Assembly: GCA_965205495.1 (NCBI GenBank)
Contig: CBDBHA010000001.1
Location: forward strand, 264,091 to 328,090
Length of the DNA: 64,000 bases
Source of the DNA: Dehalococcoidia bacterium
GTDB lineage: Bacteria > Chloroflexota > Dehalococcoidia > Lucifugimonadales > UBA3495
Direction: 5' to 3'
The position numbers and the translations under genes were made by a program. The notes below the pieces were generated by a model, which worked only from the letters and a program-made list of their open reading frames with translations, ran no database searches and was not told the DNA's origin. Shown here piece by piece: positions 7,395 to 14,209 of this stretch. How positions within the stretch are numbered: position 1 is the stretch's first letter; each line of letters begins with the position of its first letter.

Positions 7395-8798
7395 TTGGCC
7401 CAGGATTGGGATGCCGTCAACGCGGCATTTTTGTTGGGCATCGACCACCCCGGAAAGGCTACACTCCAGTTGGAACCGGCCTCTGAAGCTCAGGAAGCGC
7501 GCCCTAGAATCTACTACGGCTGGTGGATGGTTGCTATCACGTCTGCGATGGCCTTCTTTGCCAGTGGGATATTCTTCCGGGGATTCACCGTTTTCGTACC
7601 GGCCATTCGCGATTCTCTCCAAATCACCCAAGCGCAGACCAACCTGATATTCTCGCTGGCCCGGGCGGAGGGAGGGTTGGAAGGCCCTTTCGCGGGCTGG
7701 CTTATCGACAAACTCGGCAACCGGAAATTGCTAGTGCCGGCTTTGCTGTTGGCGGTGGTTGGTTACTTTGTGCTGGGGCGGTTCGTGACCGGTCTTTGGG
7801 GATTCGTGCTGGTTTACCTGCTGATGGTTTCCCTGGGGAACAGCATAGCGTTTCAGCACGCGCTGTTTGCCGGGATCAACCAATGGTTCCACCGGCGGCG
7901 GTCGCTGGCGATTTCGATACTGGCGGCGGTGTCCTCGTTGGGTGGGTTGACGCTGGTGCCGACGTTGAACTGGGTCATTGAGAACTACAGTTGGCAGGCG
8001 GCGTCGTACCTTTCCGGACTGGGATTTCTGATATTTCTGCTGCCGCTTTGCATCTGGTTTCGGAACCGGCCGGAGGACCTGGGATTGCTGCCGGACGGAG
8101 ACACGCGGCCCCGGACGATGGTGGCCCCGCCGGGCCGTGCCGGGGGGTCGGTGCGGCGGCTGGAGGTGCGGGACTACACCGTTCGCGAAGCGCTGCGGAC
8201 GAGCGCGTATTGGATTTTGTTGGTGGGGGCCGGGCTCCGGCAGGTGGCGACGCTGGGGATTCTGGTAAGCATCGTGCCGATTCTGGAGTTGAAGGGGATG
8301 GGGCGGCAGGAGGCGGCGAACCTGACCGGGTTGATGTTCGGCATCAACTTCTTCTCCCGGTTGATATTGGGGTACATGGGGGACCGGTGGCGCAAATCGC
8401 TGATTCTGGCGGCGACGCTGAGCATTGAGGCGGCGGGGTTTTTCTGCCTGTATTTCGGAGACTGGACCACCGGGTTGGGGATATTCCTGATTTATATGTT
8501 CATCTTCTTCCAGGGGTTGGGGGACGGGGCGGGGATCATCGTTTGGGCGGCGGTGGGGGAATATTACGGCCGGGACCGGTTCGCCAGTCTGCGGGGGTAC
8601 ATCACTTTTTCGCATAGCTGGGCGTTGGTGGTGTCGCCGGTGTACGCCGGTTGGGTGTTTGACCGGTTTGGGAATTTTGACCTGGCGATAATTCCGGGGG
8701 GAATTTGCGCGGGAGTGGCGGCGTTCCTTTTCCTGATTGTGCGGAAACCGCCGCAGTTGACGCGGGCGGAACCGGCGGGGGCGGCAACGGAGGTTTAG
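7395..8798 (+). CDS. MFS transporter
   Basis: 467 aa with about 12 hydrophobic segments and typical MFS loops (GWLIDKLGNRK, GYMGDRWRK). Start is uncertain: TTG at 7395 versus an internal Met. Confidence 0.75.
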   Translation: MAQDWDAVNAAFLLGIDHPGKATLQLEPASEAQEARPRIYYGWWMVAITSAMAFFASGIFFRGFTVFVPAIRDSLQITQAQTNLIFSLARAEGGLEGPFAGWLIDKLGNRKLLVPALLLAVVGYFVLGRFVTGLWGFVLVYLLMVSLGNSIAFQHALFAGINQWFHRRRSLAISILAAVSSLGGLTLVPTLNWVIENYSWQAASYLSGLGFLIFLLPLCIWFRNRPEDLGLLPDGDTRPRTMVAPPGRAGGSVRRLEVRDYTVREALRTSAYWILLVGAGLRQVATLGILVSIVPILELKGMGRQEAANLTGLMFGINFFSRLILGYMGDRWRKSLILAATLSIEAAGFFCLYFGDWTTGLGIFLIYMFIFFQGLGDGAGIIVWAAVGEYYGRDRFASLRGYITFSHSWALVVSPVYAGWVFDRFGNFDLAIIPGGICAGVAAFLFLIVRKPPQLTRAEPAGAATEV

Positions 8799-8811
8799 CG
8801 GGGGCCTTAGC

Positions 8812-9441
8812 ATGAGGAAATTCTTCGCGTTTGTTTCGTTGGTTGGGTTGGTGATGGGGGTTTTGCTGTTTGGCGGGGTGGATCGGACTTACGCCTGTCT
8901 CTGTGCGTTGCCGGGAAGTCCTGCCGAGGAGTTGGAAAGTGCGGCGGCGGTGTTTGCCGGCGAGGTGGTGTCGGTGCGGGAGGCTGAGGCGACTTTGGGG
9001 ATGATTTCTTCGGCGGATCCGACGACGGTGGAATTTCGAACCATCAGAGTCTGGAAGGGGCCGTCCGGCGGGACTCAGACCTTGACCACCGCCCGATCGG
9101 GGATAAGCTGCGGCTTCAGCTTCGTCAAGGGTCGGGAGTACATCGTTTATTCTTATGACGGGTCTACGGTTTATACATGCAGCAGGACGGCGTTGTTAGC
9201 GCTGGCGGCACCGGACCTGGCGGAACTTGGACGAGGTGGGAAGCCCGATGCCGGGGATGGGTCCGGTTCTCCGGCGGGCGGGGGTTGTGGGTTGGGGGGG
9301 GGGGGGGCCGGCGGTAACAGGCTCTGGGGTGGTGGATGTGGCGGTTTTGGGGCTGCTGGTGGGGTTGGTGTGGCTGGGGTTGGGGCGGCGGTAGCGGTAG
9401 GAGATGGGCTAACCACATTGGAAAGTTGGGAATATAGATAA
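8812..9441 (+). CDS. Secreted TIMP-like (N-terminal Cys-x-Cys, OB-fold-like) protein with a Gly-rich tail
   Basis: Signal peptide MRKFFAFVSLVGLVMGVLLFGG..TYA followed by CLCA. Also AAAVFAGEVVSV, IRVWKG, SCGFSFVKGREYIVYS, CSRT. A G14 tract at 9294-9307 makes the C-terminal frame uncertain. Confidence 0.55.
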   Translation: MRKFFAFVSLVGLVMGVLLFGGVDRTYACLCALPGSPAEELESAAAVFAGEVVSVREAEATLGMISSADPTTVEFRTIRVWKGPSGGTQTLTTARSGISCGFSFVKGREYIVYSYDGSTVYTCSRTALLALAAPDLAELGRGGKPDAGDGSGSPAGGGCGLGGGGAGGNRLWGGGCGGFGAAGGVGVAGVGAAVAVGDGLTTLESWEYR

Positions 9442-9491
9442 ACCTTCCCGAAGATATTGTGGCTCGTCTTCATTATCGTTTATCGCGCTGT

Positions 9492-9500
9492 TGCTATAAT
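9492..9500 (+). promoter_or_regulatory. Extended -10 promoter (TGcTATAAT) for the ParA-like/HEPN pair
   Basis: TG at 9492-9493 and a perfect TATAAT at 9495-9500, 28 nt upstream of the ATG at 9529. GGAG RBS lies 7 nt before the ATG. Confidence 0.5.
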
Positions 9501-9528
9501 GGCAACAGGTTTGGCCTGGAGACGGAAT

Positions 9529-10578
9529 ATGACAAAGCGGATCGCCCTGTTCAATCATAAAGGTGGCGTTAGCAAGACAACCACCACCTTCAACCTCGGG
9601 TGGATGCTGGCGGAAAAAGGGCATAGGGTTGTACTTGTGGATGCTGACCCACAATGTAACTTGACCGGGATGGTATTCGGCTTTGGTGGCCCAGAACTTG
9701 AGGACTTCTACGAGAACGAGAAGGGACGCAACCTAAAAGACGGATTGGCTCCGGCATTTGAGTCCAGACCTGAACCTCTTAAGGCGGTAAACTGCGTTCC
9801 GGTTGCTGCGCGGGATGGGCTTTTTCTCCTGCCTGGCCACATCGGGCTATCCGAATACGAAGTCACCTTGGGAATTGCCCAGGAACTCTCCGGTTCGATC
9901 CAGACACTCCAGAATCTGCCGGGTTCTATAGCCCGCCTACTTGAGTTGACAGCCGACAATCATGGAGCGGACTATGTCCTAGTAGACCTTAATCCAAGCC
10001 TTAGTTCATTGAACCAGAACTTGCTGCTGACGAGCGACGGCTTCATCGTTCCAACCAATCCAGACTATTTTTCAGCTATGGCGGTTCAATCACTGGCCAG
10101 AGTCTTGCCAGATTGGGGAAAATGGGCAAAGCGTGCGACACAATTCCACGTCCTGAGGGACGCCGTGTATCCATTTCCCGATGTAACTCCCAAATTCCTG
10201 GGTACCATTGTCCAAAACTACCGTCCCAGAGACGGCAAACCCGCCAGCGCTTTTCAAACGTGGATTGAAAAGATTGACGCGACCGTATCCGATGACTTGT
10301 TTCCACGACTGAAGGAAGCGGATATGACACTTCCTGAACATATCTATGTCGAATGCGGATTAGAGAATCTTTGTCTAGCCAGGATTTCCGACTTCAATTC
10401 TTTAATTGCCAAATCGCAAGAACATCAAACCCCGGTGTATGCGTTGACCCCCGCGCAAATAGCCCAGCGCGGTTCGGTGCTTAGTAAAACGGTAGAGTCG
10501 AGGGATAACTTCAAGGACATATTTTCCGATTTAGCGGATAAGGTCGTCTCTCTAATGGGTCATGCAAATAACCCTTGA
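9529..10578 (+). CDS. ParA/MinD-superfamily P-loop ATPase, about 349 aa with a long C-terminal extension
   Basis: Deviant Walker A: MTKRIALFNHKGGVSKTTTTFNLG. Also VLVDADPQCN and Walker B-like YVLVDLNPS. Start set at the Met preceded by GGAG. Visibly lower GC than the flanks. Confidence 0.8.
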   Translation: MTKRIALFNHKGGVSKTTTTFNLGWMLAEKGHRVVLVDADPQCNLTGMVFGFGGPELEDFYENEKGRNLKDGLAPAFESRPEPLKAVNCVPVAARDGLFLLPGHIGLSEYEVTLGIAQELSGSIQTLQNLPGSIARLLELTADNHGADYVLVDLNPSLSSLNQNLLLTSDGFIVPTNPDYFSAMAVQSLARVLPDWGKWAKRATQFHVLRDAVYPFPDVTPKFLGTIVQNYRPRDGKPASAFQTWIEKIDATVSDDLFPRLKEADMTLPEHIYVECGLENLCLARISDFNSLIAKSQEHQTPVYALTPAQIAQRGSVLSKTVESRDNFKDIFSDLADKVVSLMGHANNP

Positions 10579-11209
10579 ATTATTCCGAGCCAATATCCGG
10601 CGGTCACGGGATCTAGTTAACCTTTTCCTGGCAATGGGCAATCAAACCACGGCAGCATTGGACCTTTCCGACATCCTGCGAGCTGCCCTGGTAATGTCGG
10701 TGAGTGCTTTGGATCACTTTGTTCACGAGATCGTTAGATTGGGTATGCTTGAGGCCTACCAGGGGTACAGGGCTAGAACTGGGGCATTCTTGCAGTTTCC
10801 AGTCACGATTGAAAGTGTGATTGGTTTGCCTTCCAACTTTGAATTCGAGGATCGGTTGGATAGCCACATTAGAGCCCGTCACGGCTATCGAACCTTTCAA
10901 CTGCCGGGCCAAATCGCCGACGCAGTCCGCCTGATCTCGGATGTGGAGTTATGGAACGAATTATCCGGACTTACTGGTATGGAAAGACGAGACTTGACAG
11001 ATACCCTCATTCTTATCGTTCAATGCCGCAATAAAATTGCCCATGAGGCGGACATCATGCCTGACTACGCTGGGCAGTTGGTAAATTCAGATTCGCGCTC
11101 TCCTATAGACGAAAATACCGTGAATCAAGCCGTAGACACCATTGAGCGAATCGCCGAGGGGATTTATGGCTTGGTTTCGTTAACCGATTCGGCCGCATCA
11201 ACTGGCTGA
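10562..11209 (+). CDS. Putative HEPN-domain protein (Rx4H motif RNKIAH)
   Basis: 215 aa. Overlaps the upstream ATPase gene by 17 nt. Helix-rich composition. C-proximal CRNKIAHE (R156..H161, nt 11027-11044) fits the HEPN Rx4-6H motif with a polar residue after R. Confidence 0.55.
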   Translation: MQITLELFRANIRRSRDLVNLFLAMGNQTTAALDLSDILRAALVMSVSALDHFVHEIVRLGMLEAYQGYRARTGAFLQFPVTIESVIGLPSNFEFEDRLDSHIRARHGYRTFQLPGQIADAVRLISDVELWNELSGLTGMERRDLTDTLILIVQCRNKIAHEADIMPDYAGQLVNSDSRSPIDENTVNQAVDTIERIAEGIYGLVSLTDSAASTG

Positions 11210-11240
11210 GTCAACATAATTCACGCTCCAAGGAGGAACT

Positions 11241-12575
11241 ATGGCCACCATTCTTGAAGAGTACATTGCCAAGCACCCGGGGTCGGCTCGGCGGTATGGC
11301 GAGGCCACCCAACTTTTCCCGGGGGGCGTGACCCACGATAACCGGTACGCCGAACCGTTCCCGCTGTACATAACCCACGGTGTCGGGCCGCGAAAGTGGG
11401 ATGTGGATGGGAACGAGTACATCGACTACGTTTCCGGGCACGGGGCATTGATACTGGGGCACTCGCATCCGGCCATCGCCAGCGCAGTCGCGGAGCAGAT
11501 GGGCCGGGGGACGCACCTGGGGGCTTGCACCGATGAAGAGCTACGGTGGGGGCGGGCGATTCAGGTGTTGATGCCGTCGGTGGAGCGGGTGCGGTTTCAC
11601 AGTTCGGGGACCGAAGCGACGTTGATGGCGATGCGGCTGGCCCGGGCGTATACCGGGAAGAACAAGGTAATCAAGTTGCAGGACCATTTTCACGGCTGGC
11701 ATGACTACGCCATGGCCGGTTCGGACCGTGCGGCGCCGGGGATTCCGCCGGAGACCTTTGGCAGCATGGTAATTGTCCCGCCGGGGGACCTGGCGGCGGT
11801 GGAAGACGCGCTGAAGCGGGACCGGGAGATTGCGGCGTTGATCCTGGAGCCGACCGGGGCGCACTACGGGCAGCTTCCTTTTGACGTGCCGGCTTACTTG
11901 AAAGGGCTCAGGGAGCTGACCGAGCAACACGGGGTGGTGCTGATATTTGACGAGGTGGTTACGGGGTTTCGGGCCGCCCCGGGCGGGGCGCAGGAACGGT
12001 ATGGGGTTGCTCCCGACCTTACCACAATGGCCAAGATTGTGGCGGGGGCGCTGCCCGGCGGCGCGGTGGGAGGAAAGGGCGAGATCGTGGACATGATTGC
12101 CTTCCGGGGAGACCCGGAGTGGGACAACCAACGCCGGGTGTACCATCCTGGGACTTTCAACGCCAATCCGTTGTCGGCAGTGGCCGGGGCGACTTGTTTG
12201 GAGATAATCGCGTCGCAACCCATCAACCAGCAGGCCGACGCCGTGGCCGACCGGTTGAAGCGGGGATTGAACGACATTTTTGGCCGGATGGAGGTCCCGG
12301 GTCACGCCCACGGCATCGCGTCGATGATTCACGTGGTGTTGGAAGACTGCGACTGCGACCGGGAAATTTGCACGATGCCCCACCGGCAGATCAAGCAGGC
12401 CACGGCGTCGCCCGCGGTGACGGCGTTCAAGCGGGGTCTGCTGAACCAGGGGGTGGACATAATGGGCCGGGACGCCTTTTTGGTGTCGGCCACCCACACG
12501 GAGGGGGACATCGACCTAACCCTGGAAGCGGTGGAGCGGACGTTGGAACTGGTGCGGGGAGAGGGGCTGGTCTAG
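11241..12575 (+). CDS. Class-III aminotransferase (glutamate-1-semialdehyde aminomutase-like)
   Basis: 444 aa. FPGGV, YIDYVSGHGALILGH, FHSSGTEA, FDEVVTGFR. AAGGAGG RBS. Confidence 0.8.
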   Translation: MATILEEYIAKHPGSARRYGEATQLFPGGVTHDNRYAEPFPLYITHGVGPRKWDVDGNEYIDYVSGHGALILGHSHPAIASAVAEQMGRGTHLGACTDEELRWGRAIQVLMPSVERVRFHSSGTEATLMAMRLARAYTGKNKVIKLQDHFHGWHDYAMAGSDRAAPGIPPETFGSMVIVPPGDLAAVEDALKRDREIAALILEPTGAHYGQLPFDVPAYLKGLRELTEQHGVVLIFDEVVTGFRAAPGGAQERYGVAPDLTTMAKIVAGALPGGAVGGKGEIVDMIAFRGDPEWDNQRRVYHPGTFNANPLSAVAGATCLEIIASQPINQQADAVADRLKRGLNDIFGRMEVPGHAHGIASMIHVVLEDCDCDREICTMPHRQIKQATASPAVTAFKRGLLNQGVDIMGRDAFLVSATHTEGDIDLTLEAVERTLELVRGEGLV

Positions 12576-12696: not shown

Positions 12697-13422
12697 ATGC
12701 CGTCATTTTGGGAGAATCTTCAAGTAGATGGGCAGGATATGGCGGTTTATTCCAGCGTGCCCAGCGGCTCCGGTCCTTTTCCGGCGGTGGTCATTGCTCA
12801 TCCGGCCAGCGGAGTGGCGGAGTTTACCCAGAGCATCGCCGACCGGCTGGCGGAAGCGGGTTACGCAGCGGCGGCGCCGGACCTGTTCCACCGAGTCACC
12901 GAGGAGATGATGGCCGATGGGACGGCCCGCAACGCCTTTTTGCAGGACGCGGAGATTGTCGCCGACATCAACGCCACGGTGGACTGGCTGCAGGGGCATC
13001 CGGCTATTGTGGGCGAGTCAGTTGGAATAATCGGCTTCTGCATGGGTGGGCGGGTAGCCTGGCTGGCGGGGGCGACCAACCCGCATCTGCAAGCGGTGGT
13101 GCCCTACTACCCGGGCAATCTTTGGGCGGCAAGGGGCGACGGCCGAGAGTCGCCGTATGAGTTGGCCAACGGGATTCAAGCTCCCATGCTGGTCCATTTT
13201 GGGGAGGTGGACGAGAACCCCTCCCAGGACGACATGCGGAAACTGGATGCGGAGTTGGACCGGTTGGGTAAGGCCCACCAGTTTTATACCTATCCAGGGG
13301 CGGGCCATGCTTTCATGGACTTTGGCCAGCCGCCTCGGTACCAGCGGGAGGCCGCCGATGCTTCATGGCCGCGAACGTTGGAGTTTTTCGCGGCGCACCT
13401 GAGCGGGATGGCGGCGGCCTAA
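12697..13422 (+). CDS. Dienelactone hydrolase family protein (paralog 1)
   Basis: 241 aa. GPFPAVV, GFCMGG nucleophile elbow, YPGAGHAF. Confidence 0.8.
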   Translation: MPSFWENLQVDGQDMAVYSSVPSGSGPFPAVVIAHPASGVAEFTQSIADRLAEAGYAAAAPDLFHRVTEEMMADGTARNAFLQDAEIVADINATVDWLQGHPAIVGESVGIIGFCMGGRVAWLAGATNPHLQAVVPYYPGNLWAARGDGRESPYELANGIQAPMLVHFGEVDENPSQDDMRKLDAELDRLGKAHQFYTYPGAGHAFMDFGQPPRYQREAADASWPRTLEFFAAHLSGMAAA

Positions 13423-13477: not shown

Positions 13478-14209
13478 ATGCCATCTTTCTGGGAGAAGCT
13501 TGAAGTAGACGGCAGTGAAATGGACCTTTACGCCAGCGTGCCCAGCGGGTCGGGGCCATTTCCGGCGGTGATAGTCAGCCAGCATGGTGGAGGGGTGGAC
13601 CAGTTCATTCAGACCATCTGCGACCGGCTGGCCGAGGCGGGATATGCCGGGGTTGCGCCGAGCCTGTACCACCGGGTTGCGCCGGAGGTTTTGGGTGGGG
13701 ACCCGCGGCCCAGCCCCTGGGACGTGCTCAACGACCCGGAGACCATCGCCGATATTGGGGCGACGGTGGAGTTTTTGCGGGCCCATCCGGGGATTGACGG
13801 GGAGCGCATTGGCATTACCGGGTTCTGCATGGGGGGACGGGAAGCCTGGCTGGGGGCGGCTACCAACCCGCACATCAAGGCCGCCGCGCCCTACTACGGC
13901 GGGAACATTCTGGTGCCCTGGGGTTCGGGAACGCAGTCGCCTTTCGAGTTGGCCGGCGGCATCAAGTGTCCGGTGCTGTTCCACTTTGGAGAACTGGACG
14001 TTAACCCTTCGCCGGACGACATGAAGACCTTTGACGATGAACTGGCGCGACTGGGGATTCCCCACACGTTCTTCACGTACCCAGGAGCGAACCATGCTTT
14101 TATGGACTTCACGGCGGGGCGGTTCCACCAGGAATCTTCGGATACATCCTGGCCGCGGACGCTGGAGTTTTTCGACCAACACCTAAAGGGGGCGGCGGTG
14201 GCCAGCTAG
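13478..14209 (+). CDS. Dienelactone hydrolase family protein (paralog 2)
   Basis: 243 aa. Collinear with paralog 1 (MPSFWEKLEVDG.., GFCMGG, YPGANHAF). Confidence 0.8.
   Translation: MPSFWEKLEVDGSEMDLYASVPSGSGPFPAVIVSQHGGGVDQFIQTICDRLAEAGYAGVAPSLYHRVAPEVLGGDPRPSPWDVLNDPETIADIGATVEFLRAHPGIDGERIGITGFCMGGREAWLGAATNPHIKAAAPYYGGNILVPWGSGTQSPFELAGGIKCPVLFHFGELDVNPSPDDMKTFDDELARLGIPHTFFTYPGANHAFMDFTAGRFHQESSDTSWPRTLEFFDQHLKGAAVAS

Follow-up and report, generated by a model that had tools for sequence, protein, structure and literature searches.

A ParA-type ATPase gene and an overlapping HEPN gene in a Dehalococcoidia bacterium as a putative mobile conflict module

Which function can be assigned to a ParA-type ATPase gene whose downstream partner is not a parB gene but a gene for a small HEPN-domain protein? 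This question is raised by a gene pair located in a stretch of 64,000 nucleotides (nt) of a Dehalococcoidia bacterium (GenBank assembly GCA_965205495.1, contig CBDBHA010000001.1, positions 264,091 to 328,090 of the forward strand), the whole of which is referred to here as the window. The two co-oriented genes, designated gene 1 and gene 2, had been proposed in an initial annotation to form a candidate defence or toxin module. The reading favoured in the current work, held with moderate confidence, is that the pair represents a self-contained and horizontally mobile toxin-antitoxin-like conflict module, in which a HEPN ribonuclease (RNase) effector is controlled by a ParA-type ATPase and which is likely to serve abortive infection or superinfection exclusion. 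This reading is based on the identities of the two proteins and their conserved motifs, on an obligate and coupled pairing without any other part and on carriage by mobile elements, to which are added a divergence of the pair that is faster than that of its flanks and an exchange of alleles. RNase activity and toxicity of the HEPN protein, its physical interaction with the ATPase and the direction of control are properties that we infer.

Identity of the two overlapping genes

The layout described in the initial annotation, with two co-oriented genes, a 17-nt overlap and an ATG of gene 2 at position 10562, was confirmed in the sequence (Table 1). The open reading frame (ORF) containing gene 1 extends from 9457 to 10578, and its ATG at 9529 specifies a protein of 349 amino acids (aa) starting with MTKRIALFNHKGGVSKTT; gene 2 encodes 215 aa and ends with the stop codon at 11207-11209. 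The overlap suggests translational coupling of gene 1 and gene 2. Related loci were obtained from a scan of one genome per species in a collection of 185,579 species, which resulted in at least 454 confirmed loci, the best 80 of which were kept; overlaps and motifs were measured in 75 of these, and the guanine-plus-cytosine (GC) content in 72. The overlap is of the same length in most of the loci measured, across many phyla.

Gene 1 matches the Pfam families AAA_31 (1.9e-27) and CbiA (1.8e-14) and corresponds to PHROG 164, labelled 'ParA-like partition protein'. Together with the invariant residues of its motifs, these matches bear out the earlier assignment of its deviant Walker A sequence to the ParA/MinD/Soj ATPases: K11, G12, G13, K16, T17 and T18, D38 and D40 of Walker A' and D153 of Walker B are invariant in alignment A2, and the string HKGGVSKTT was found in 61 of the 75 loci. 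The AlphaFold model of the protein (predicted local distance difference test, pLDDT, 87; predicted template modelling score, pTM, 0.90) was aligned by Foldseek with Soj, ParA, McdA, MinD and 3pg5 along 330-345 columns (E 1e-12 to 1e-8), the top structural match being 3pg5 (DIP2308 of C. diphtheriae; E 3e-12), which is also the closest solved relative by sequence (3e-23). Approximately 90 extra residues are present as insertions (about 46-70, 190-215 and 240-280), along with a long C-terminal helix. The product of gene 1 has a single ParA/Soj fold with helical insertions and is an ATPase of the ParA/MinD type. The 'long unrelated C-terminal half' attributed to it in the initial annotation was abandoned because the whole protein aligns with ParA/Soj structures, and a two-domain organization of the ATPase was rejected on the same observation.

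The fold, the deviant Walker A motif and a D-x-D-P-Q motif are common to gene 1, to type Ib ParA proteins (Soj, ParF and McdA) and to DIP2308. The 3pg5 protein, which is an uncharacterised structural-genomics protein, has in addition the DPQCN variant of gene 1 as well as its insertions. In contrast to the type Ib ParA proteins, gene 1 has no ParB-, ParG- or McdB-like partner and no centromere, being obligately paired with a HEPN gene.

Gene 2 matches the Pfam family HEPN_RiboL-PSP (PF18735) with 34.7 bits, the gathering threshold being 28.4, and the match encompasses model positions 4-186 of 191; the only other HEPN-clan model of Pfam to appear was HEPN_Swt1, weakly and below threshold (E = 0.056); in PHROG it is assigned to family 13503, a family of unknown function (6e-29), and the NCBIfam scan of gene 2 returned no match. 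The sequence CRNKIAHE, from which a HEPN protein had originally been proposed, occupies residues 155-162 (nt 11024-11047), with the Asn that follows R156 being the polar residue of the Rx4-6H signature. Residues R156, H161, E162 and D164 are invariant in 32 homologs and are kept in phage and plasmid homologs that are 26-30% identical, and the motif RRN[KQ]I[AV]HE is present in 71 of the 75 loci. In the window, C155 (11024-11026) replaces a nearly invariant Arg (R155), which is a lineage-specific substitution leaving the canonical R156 intact. The invariant residues of gene 2 are mostly charged, with the addition of S48 and S126, and its AlphaFold model is all-helical (pLDDT 82). With PF18735 above the gathering score and an invariant R156/H161 pair, the original proposal was upheld and gene 2 is accepted as a HEPN-family protein on profile and motif, the fold evidence being consistent but weak.

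The family defined by gene 2 is large, as a profile search of 1.84 billion representatives retrieved 1577 clusters (50% identity) with a cutoff of E <= 1e-3, of which 959 reached E <= 1e-10. Nearly all of them, including the top 150 representatives, are single-domain proteins of approximately 200 aa, and gene 2 is typical of the family in this respect. The database homologs listed with a precomputed Pfam entry all carry PF18735, and three shorter ones are without an entry. ParA-HEPN fusion proteins were sought among these matches and none was found, the longer ones being explained by tails, insertions or mis-called starts. In the table of Anantharaman et al. 2013 (Biol Direct 8:15, PMC3710099), the 'Ribo L-PSP-HEPN' family is described as having the motif, as being fused to an endoRNase L-PSP domain and as occurring in a ParB operon, whereas gene 2 is a stand-alone gene with a ParA neighbour; that description is taken as context and constitutes no strict criterion of membership.

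Pairing, spread and mobility of the gene pair

Both ORFs have hundreds to thousands of homologs, and the suggestion that they are conserved as neighbours was substantiated. By tblastn, a homolog of gene 1 was detected directly upstream of the HEPN gene in 79 of the 80 genome loci, being full-length in 75, split or degraded in three (L052, L060 and L069) and cut by the contig end in one (L079); in the lone exception (L065) the contig starts inside the HEPN gene and holds no upstream DNA. The ATPase gene is likewise directly upstream in each of 27 phage or plasmid loci, even where the HEPN identity is 26-40%, and no orphan HEPN gene occurs among the 106 loci having upstream sequence. Pairwise distances of ATPase and HEPN proteins correlate in a mirror-tree comparison (r = 0.73), implying that the proteins co-diverge, with a mean identity of 59.5% for the ATPase versus 50.8% for the HEPN protein. 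The pairing of ATPase and HEPN genes is effectively obligate. No gene family among the three genes on each side is common to more than seven loci, and there is therefore no third component. Among the kept loci are representatives of Dehalococcoidia, Poribacteria, Binatia, cyanobacteria, Planctomycetota, Acidobacteriota, Alphaproteobacteria, Desulfobacterota, Myxococcota, Spirochaetia and other groups.

More distant homologous pairs, in which the ATPase is 43-46% and the HEPN protein 26-31% identical, show the same gene order and are adjacent, mostly abutting or overlapping. They are carried by conjugative plasmids of Burkholderia glumae, these being replicons of 170-280 kb, by WX-TY, one of the filamentous Pf phages of Pseudomonas, and by a Pf5-type prophage record (AY324828), and all three HEPN proteins score above the PF18735 threshold (37.7 bits in Burkholderia, 52.7 in the Pf phage and 37.8 in Pf5). 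In Pf5 of P. aeruginosa PA14 the ATPase is Orf317 (PA14_49030), and the adjoining HEPN ORF is unannotated in AY324828. This ORF (L084, 5001-5528) encodes 175 aa and ends right after RNSIVHEAD, about 400 nt from att2, as compared to the full 202 aa in WX-TY (L086, 3700-4308); the shortened Pf5 protein may be inactive, or its end may have been altered by integration. The exact sequence of the P. aeruginosa copy was recovered on 196 contigs, where it is annotated as 'HEPN domain-containing protein' and 'ParA family protein'. Published mentions of PA14_49030 refer to a protein with a predicted ParA nucleotide-binding domain whose function is 'under study' (PMC7379572, PMC3820363), and a literature search found no paper in which HEPN and Pf phages are both mentioned.

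The HEPN gene is present on 24 additional viral contigs, in each case with the ATPase gene directly upstream, and on the larger of these the neighbours of the pair include CI/CII-type regulators and a P2 gpA-like nickase. Relatives of the ParA clade with 36-48% identity are frequent in other viral contigs (L124-L188), where they occur without HEPN and without any consistent partner, the downstream ORFs being unrelated phage genes or spurious. These relatives form a sister clade, made up of ParA-like phage ATPases that stand alone or have other partners, and the HEPN-linked ATPases are therefore a subclade of mobile-element ParA proteins.

The order of the two genes, with ParA first and a small overlapping partner second, is also that of parAB operons, and an alternative explanation is that the pair is a partition or positioning system, gene 1 being a true ParA and gene 2 a cargo adaptor in the ParB/McdB position with no nuclease function. 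It would agree with the PHROG label of the ATPase family, with homologs on Pf phages that replicate episomally and on plasmids, and with the HEPN-less phage ATPases of the sister clade; moreover, R232 and R234 can be aligned manually with the DNA-binding Arg189 of Soj, to which they may correspond. Yet a cargo adaptor does not account for a partner that keeps the invariant HEPN catalytic motif down to approximately 26% identity and in which a Pfam scan recognised no DNA-binding domain, and most copies, from at least ten phyla, reside on chromosomes with housekeeping genes as neighbours, a setting that offers no replicon to be partitioned. The earlier remark that parB and parS-like repeats are missing was found to be correct, in that the gene downstream of the ATPase is a HEPN gene rather than the ParB gene of ParABS systems, no third gene is conserved, and the region 8700-11500 is devoid of repeat arrays and of parS-like or iteron repeats. 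A partition or positioning role is thus regarded as quite unlikely.

Compositionally the pair stands out from its surroundings. The lower GC content noted in the initial annotation was reproduced in 500-nt windows, with values of 0.47-0.53 across the pair versus 0.60-0.66 in both flanks, i.e. a difference of roughly 10-15 GC points. The same holds for 71 of 72 loci (mean difference 9.6 points), and the GC content of the pair nevertheless still follows that of the host (r = 0.80). The GC skew is approximately zero within the pair versus +0.1 to +0.4 outside, which is a second compositional sign that the cassette has a history unlike that of its surroundings. Along positions 1-24000 of the window the skew is positive almost everywhere and the cumulative skew climbs steadily, the pair being the exception.

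The claim that the pair is an acquired insert stood in part. In OY762444, a chromosome of a related member of the Dehalococcoidia, the pair occupies the same site, with an MFS transporter and a class-III aminotransferase on either side; the flanking proteins are 83-91% identical, as opposed to 67-68% for the pair. A recent insertion was dropped because of this syntenic copy in a related genome, the low GC content being family-wide as well, and what was retained is that the cassette behaves like horizontally mobile accessory DNA. Comparison with a near-identical strain (contig L189) revealed flanks that are 0.2-1.5% divergent at the nucleotide level, with a synonymous divergence (dS) of about 0.035 for neighbouring genes, versus 6.1% and a whole-gene dS of 0.175 for the ATPase gene. 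Divergence in the 3' third of gene 1 reaches 43 differences per 300 nt (about 14%; Table 1), in a tract whose residues (~240-335) constitute the highest-entropy segment of the ATPase family. This tract looks like a recombination import into what would be the likeliest specificity surface of the protein.

A housekeeping function, in which the HEPN protein would be an RNA-processing factor and the ATPase its chaperone with no role in conflict, would fit the many chromosomal copies that adjoin core metabolic genes and the persistence of the pair at one site in related Dehalococcoidia. Indeed, 145 neighbours taken from 37 genome loci consist for the most part of housekeeping genes (MFS transporters, aconitase, tRNA synthetases and Hsp70), and enrichment in defence islands is therefore not shown. 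Such a function is nonetheless considered very unlikely, in view of a patchy spread (at least 454 loci among the 185,579 species), a GC content systematically below that of the host, the rapid divergence of the pair relative to its flanks together with swapped alleles, its presence on phages and plasmids, and occasional pseudogenisation.

Control of the HEPN protein by the ATPase

Toxin-antitoxin, abortive-infection and CRISPR-associated systems repeatedly employ HEPN RNases as their effectors. To our knowledge, the HEPN proteins studied so far are regulated by nucleotidyltransferases, by CARF sensors or by domains fused to them. An obligate regulator of the ParA/MinD type would be a mechanistically different HEPN switch, involving ATP-dependent dimerisation and possibly coupling to the nucleoid. 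In the conflict module favoured here, translational coupling would ensure that the ATPase is made in a fixed proportion to the HEPN protein, which it would bind and control. The ATPase would cycle between a monomer and an ATP-sandwich dimer in a ParA-like manner, thereby keeping the HEPN protein inactive. A trigger, for which cassette loss, an altered ATP or nucleoid state and a component of an incoming phage or plasmid are candidates, would then shift the nucleotide or partner state of the ATPase, and the HEPN protein thus freed or licensed would assemble into an active dimer that cleaves RNA, arresting the cell or the invader.

Several observations weigh against this module. The top and recurrent PDB matches of the gene 2 model are HepT toxins (6m6u, 7bxo, 5yep and 7ae6), with a probability of up to 0.97 and a target-normalised TM-score of 0.5-0.6 but E values that are not significant (0.2-2), and a sequence-profile search of the PDB with the HEPN alignment returned just a spurious coiled-coil match. 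The scan against PADLOC-DB 2.0 gave no match for gene 2, and for gene 1 a match to the P-loop (residues 2-40) of PDC-M28B alone; few defence-model matches (a type III restriction-modification pair, DrmD and mads genes) were encountered among the 145 chromosomal neighbours; and the literature search found no study reporting that a member of the family is toxic, cleaves RNA or protects against phages. Both in size and in conservation the ATPase exceeds the putative toxin, which is not what a classical labile antitoxin would show. Finally, four loci (L012, L030, L036 and L057) combine a degenerate Walker A motif (HKEGVGKT, HKGDVSKT, NRGGVGKT or HKAGVSKT) with an intact HEPN motif, which argues that ATP binding is not simply needed for neutralisation.

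The distant homologs of the pair likewise had no PADLOC match beyond the P-loop, and in a BFVD fold search no significant match was obtained with the gene 2 model, its best likeness being a phage MAE-28990/MAE-18760-like HEPN protein (weak: E 0.29, TM 0.44). According to one review, PF18735 is the HEPN domain of PD-T4-2, PD-T4-5, PD-T7-3 and ApeA. Gene 2 matched none of the PADLOC models of these four systems.

The larger and better conserved ATPase and the Walker A-degenerate copies bear on the direction of control, and an ATP-dependent activation of the HEPN protein, or an ATP-independent structural hold on it, therefore seems to fit better than an ATP-dependent neutralisation, with the proviso that this inference is drawn from four loci, which is a small sample, and that errors in metagenome-assembled genomes are possible. 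The degenerate Walker A copies, as well as a HEPN gene with an internal stop (L020), may have arisen through decay in certain lineages or through errors of assembly.

A further explanation of the pair is a type VII-like toxin-antitoxin system, in which the ParA-like enzyme would covalently modify the HEPN protein, e.g. by phosphorylation as in BY-kinases, with no sequestration. Direct phosphorylation was raised as an option in PMC3710099. A strictly conserved ATPase active site and an ATPase that is the better conserved partner are what would be expected of an enzyme, and the structures nearest to the HEPN model are the above-mentioned HepT toxins, which are regulated by modification. Gene 1 has, on the other hand, a ParA/Soj fold with the signature Lys of dimerising ATPases and no visible tyrosine-cluster tail of BY-kinases, the HEPN protein contains no invariant Tyr, and Walker A-degenerate copies next to an intact HEPN gene would be lethal if neutralisation needed modification. 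This explanation is rated as improbable; in order of confidence it precedes the partition or positioning role, which in turn precedes the housekeeping function.

In MNT-HEPN systems the HEPN protein is the toxin, and MntA AMPylates HepT. These MntA-HepT (type VII) systems resemble the present pair in that the gene of a HEPN RNase toxin, putative in the present case, follows that of the nucleotide-using protein which controls it, and in that HepT chains are the top solved matches of the gene 2 model. They differ in having a minimal nucleotidyltransferase rather than a ParA-fold ATPase as partner, in the size of the HEPN protein (about 130 aa for HepT versus about 200 aa with extra helices here) and in showing no similarity at the sequence level; AMPylation chemistry is not expected for the present pair. 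In PARIS (AriA/AriB), Septu (PtuA/PtuB) and Gabija an NTPase partner restrains or licenses a nuclease, and these systems are encoded by compact cassettes of prophages and satellites. Their ATPases are of the ABC, SMC or OLD type and act with Toprim or HNH DNases or tRNases as effectors. The present pair differs from them by its ParA/MinD-type ATPase and HEPN protein, and no PADLOC match to these systems was obtained.

The claim that no such pair had been functionally characterised stood insofar as no study was found, whereas the idea as such is not wholly novel: Anantharaman et al. 2013 (Biol Direct 8:15, PMC3710099) predicted a dyad of a MAE_18760-family HEPN protein and a ParA/Soj protein, in which the ATPase would serve as antitoxin, either through a conformational change that depends on nucleotide or through phosphorylation. 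The pairing of ParA and HEPN was thus published earlier as a prediction, for the MAE_18760 family and not for RiboL-PSP. That dyad and the present pair are alike in consisting of an adjacent, co-oriented ParA/Soj SIMIBI ATPase gene and a stand-alone Rx4-6H HEPN gene with the ATPase in the place of the antitoxin, and in having a toxin-antitoxin role known from prediction. They differ in the HEPN protein, which here is of the RiboL-PSP type (PF18735) and is set apart by Pfam and by a weak structural match. This distinction presumes that MAE_18760 is covered by a Pfam model, as the protein name of the MAE-28990/MAE-18760-like phage match suggests.

A more specific and tentative version of the conflict module, which as formulated is possible but rather unlikely, is that a partition-type ParA has been exapted as the sensor or switch of an immune RNase, its variable and recombination-exchanged C-terminal surface reading the state of the nucleotide, the nucleoid or the invader and licensing cleavage by the HEPN protein. 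If this were true, the pair would represent a defence or exclusion system of a new class that is carried by prophages and plasmids and is present also in Pf5 of PA14; if it were an addiction module alone, it would contain the first documented ParA-type antitoxin. In either case the family is broad, with about 1,000-1,600 clusters (50% identity) and an occurrence in the genomes of at least 454 species, and uncatalogued. A homologous pair is present in Pf prophages including that of PA14, which opens the hypothesis to tests in a pathogen amenable to genetics; the module could be of relevance there to the biology of Pf phages, to competition between phages and to the maintenance of prophages.

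Upstream signals and neighbouring genes

Table 1 Positions in the window of the gene pair, its motifs and its upstream signals
Feature	Position	Strand	Basis
Palindrome CTGTTGC-TATAATG-GCAACAG, 7-bp arms, enclosing TGCTATAAT	9488..9508	+	Sequence
GGAG ribosome-binding site, 7 nt before the ATG of gene 1	9518..9521	+	Sequence
Gene 1, ParA/MinD-type (SIMIBI) P-loop ATPase	9529..10578	+	Pfam, AlphaFold model, Foldseek, PHROG
Deviant Walker A NHKGGVSKTT, residues 9-18, signature Lys K11, P-loop Lys K16	9553..9582	+	Alignment
Hypervariable 3' third of gene 1, residues ~240-335	10242..10541	+	Comparison with contig L189
Stop/start overlap of gene 1 and gene 2, 17 nt	10562..10578	+	Sequence; same overlap in 59/75 related loci
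Gene 2, stand-alone HEPN-domain protein, RiboL-PSP-HEPN family, predicted RNase effector/toxin	10562..11209	+	Pfam, PHROG, helical model
HEPN catalytic motif R156-N-K-I-A-H161 (Rx4H), then E162 and D164	11027..11044	+	Alignment

Upstream of gene 1, the match to an extended -10 element (TGCTATAAT, 9492-9500) is present as first annotated, but as a promoter it is a sequence match only: the consensus promoter scan passed it over for want of a -35 element. The palindrome that encloses this match is the best inverted repeat among the 120 nt upstream and may constitute a candidate promoter and operator of the pair, perhaps an autoregulatory one. Among the 75 related loci the pattern TGnTAnnnT occurs upstream in 16, versus 9.6 +/- 2.9 in shuffled sequences; the palindrome of the window is not conserved in these loci, their inverted repeats are no stronger than those of shuffled sequences, and a conserved upstream operator or promoter was sought across them and not found. 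The GGAG ribosome-binding site was located as proposed, and GGAG, GAGG or AGGA is present within 20 nt of the start codon in 51 of the 75 loci.

The N-terminus of the ORF preceding the pair (8812-9441) resembles a signal peptide, and its C-terminal tail is rich in Gly; the ORF produced no Pfam match, and the label 'TIMP-like' given to it earlier was withdrawn for lack of Pfam support. It is missing from a syntenic locus (L083) and measures 606 nt in L189 versus 630 nt in the window; of the inserts present here, it is the more recent or the more variable one. Further downstream, two dienelactone-hydrolase paralogues with a mutual identity of approximately 58-61% are arranged in tandem (12697-13422 and 13478-14209), and this tandem is also kept in related genomes.

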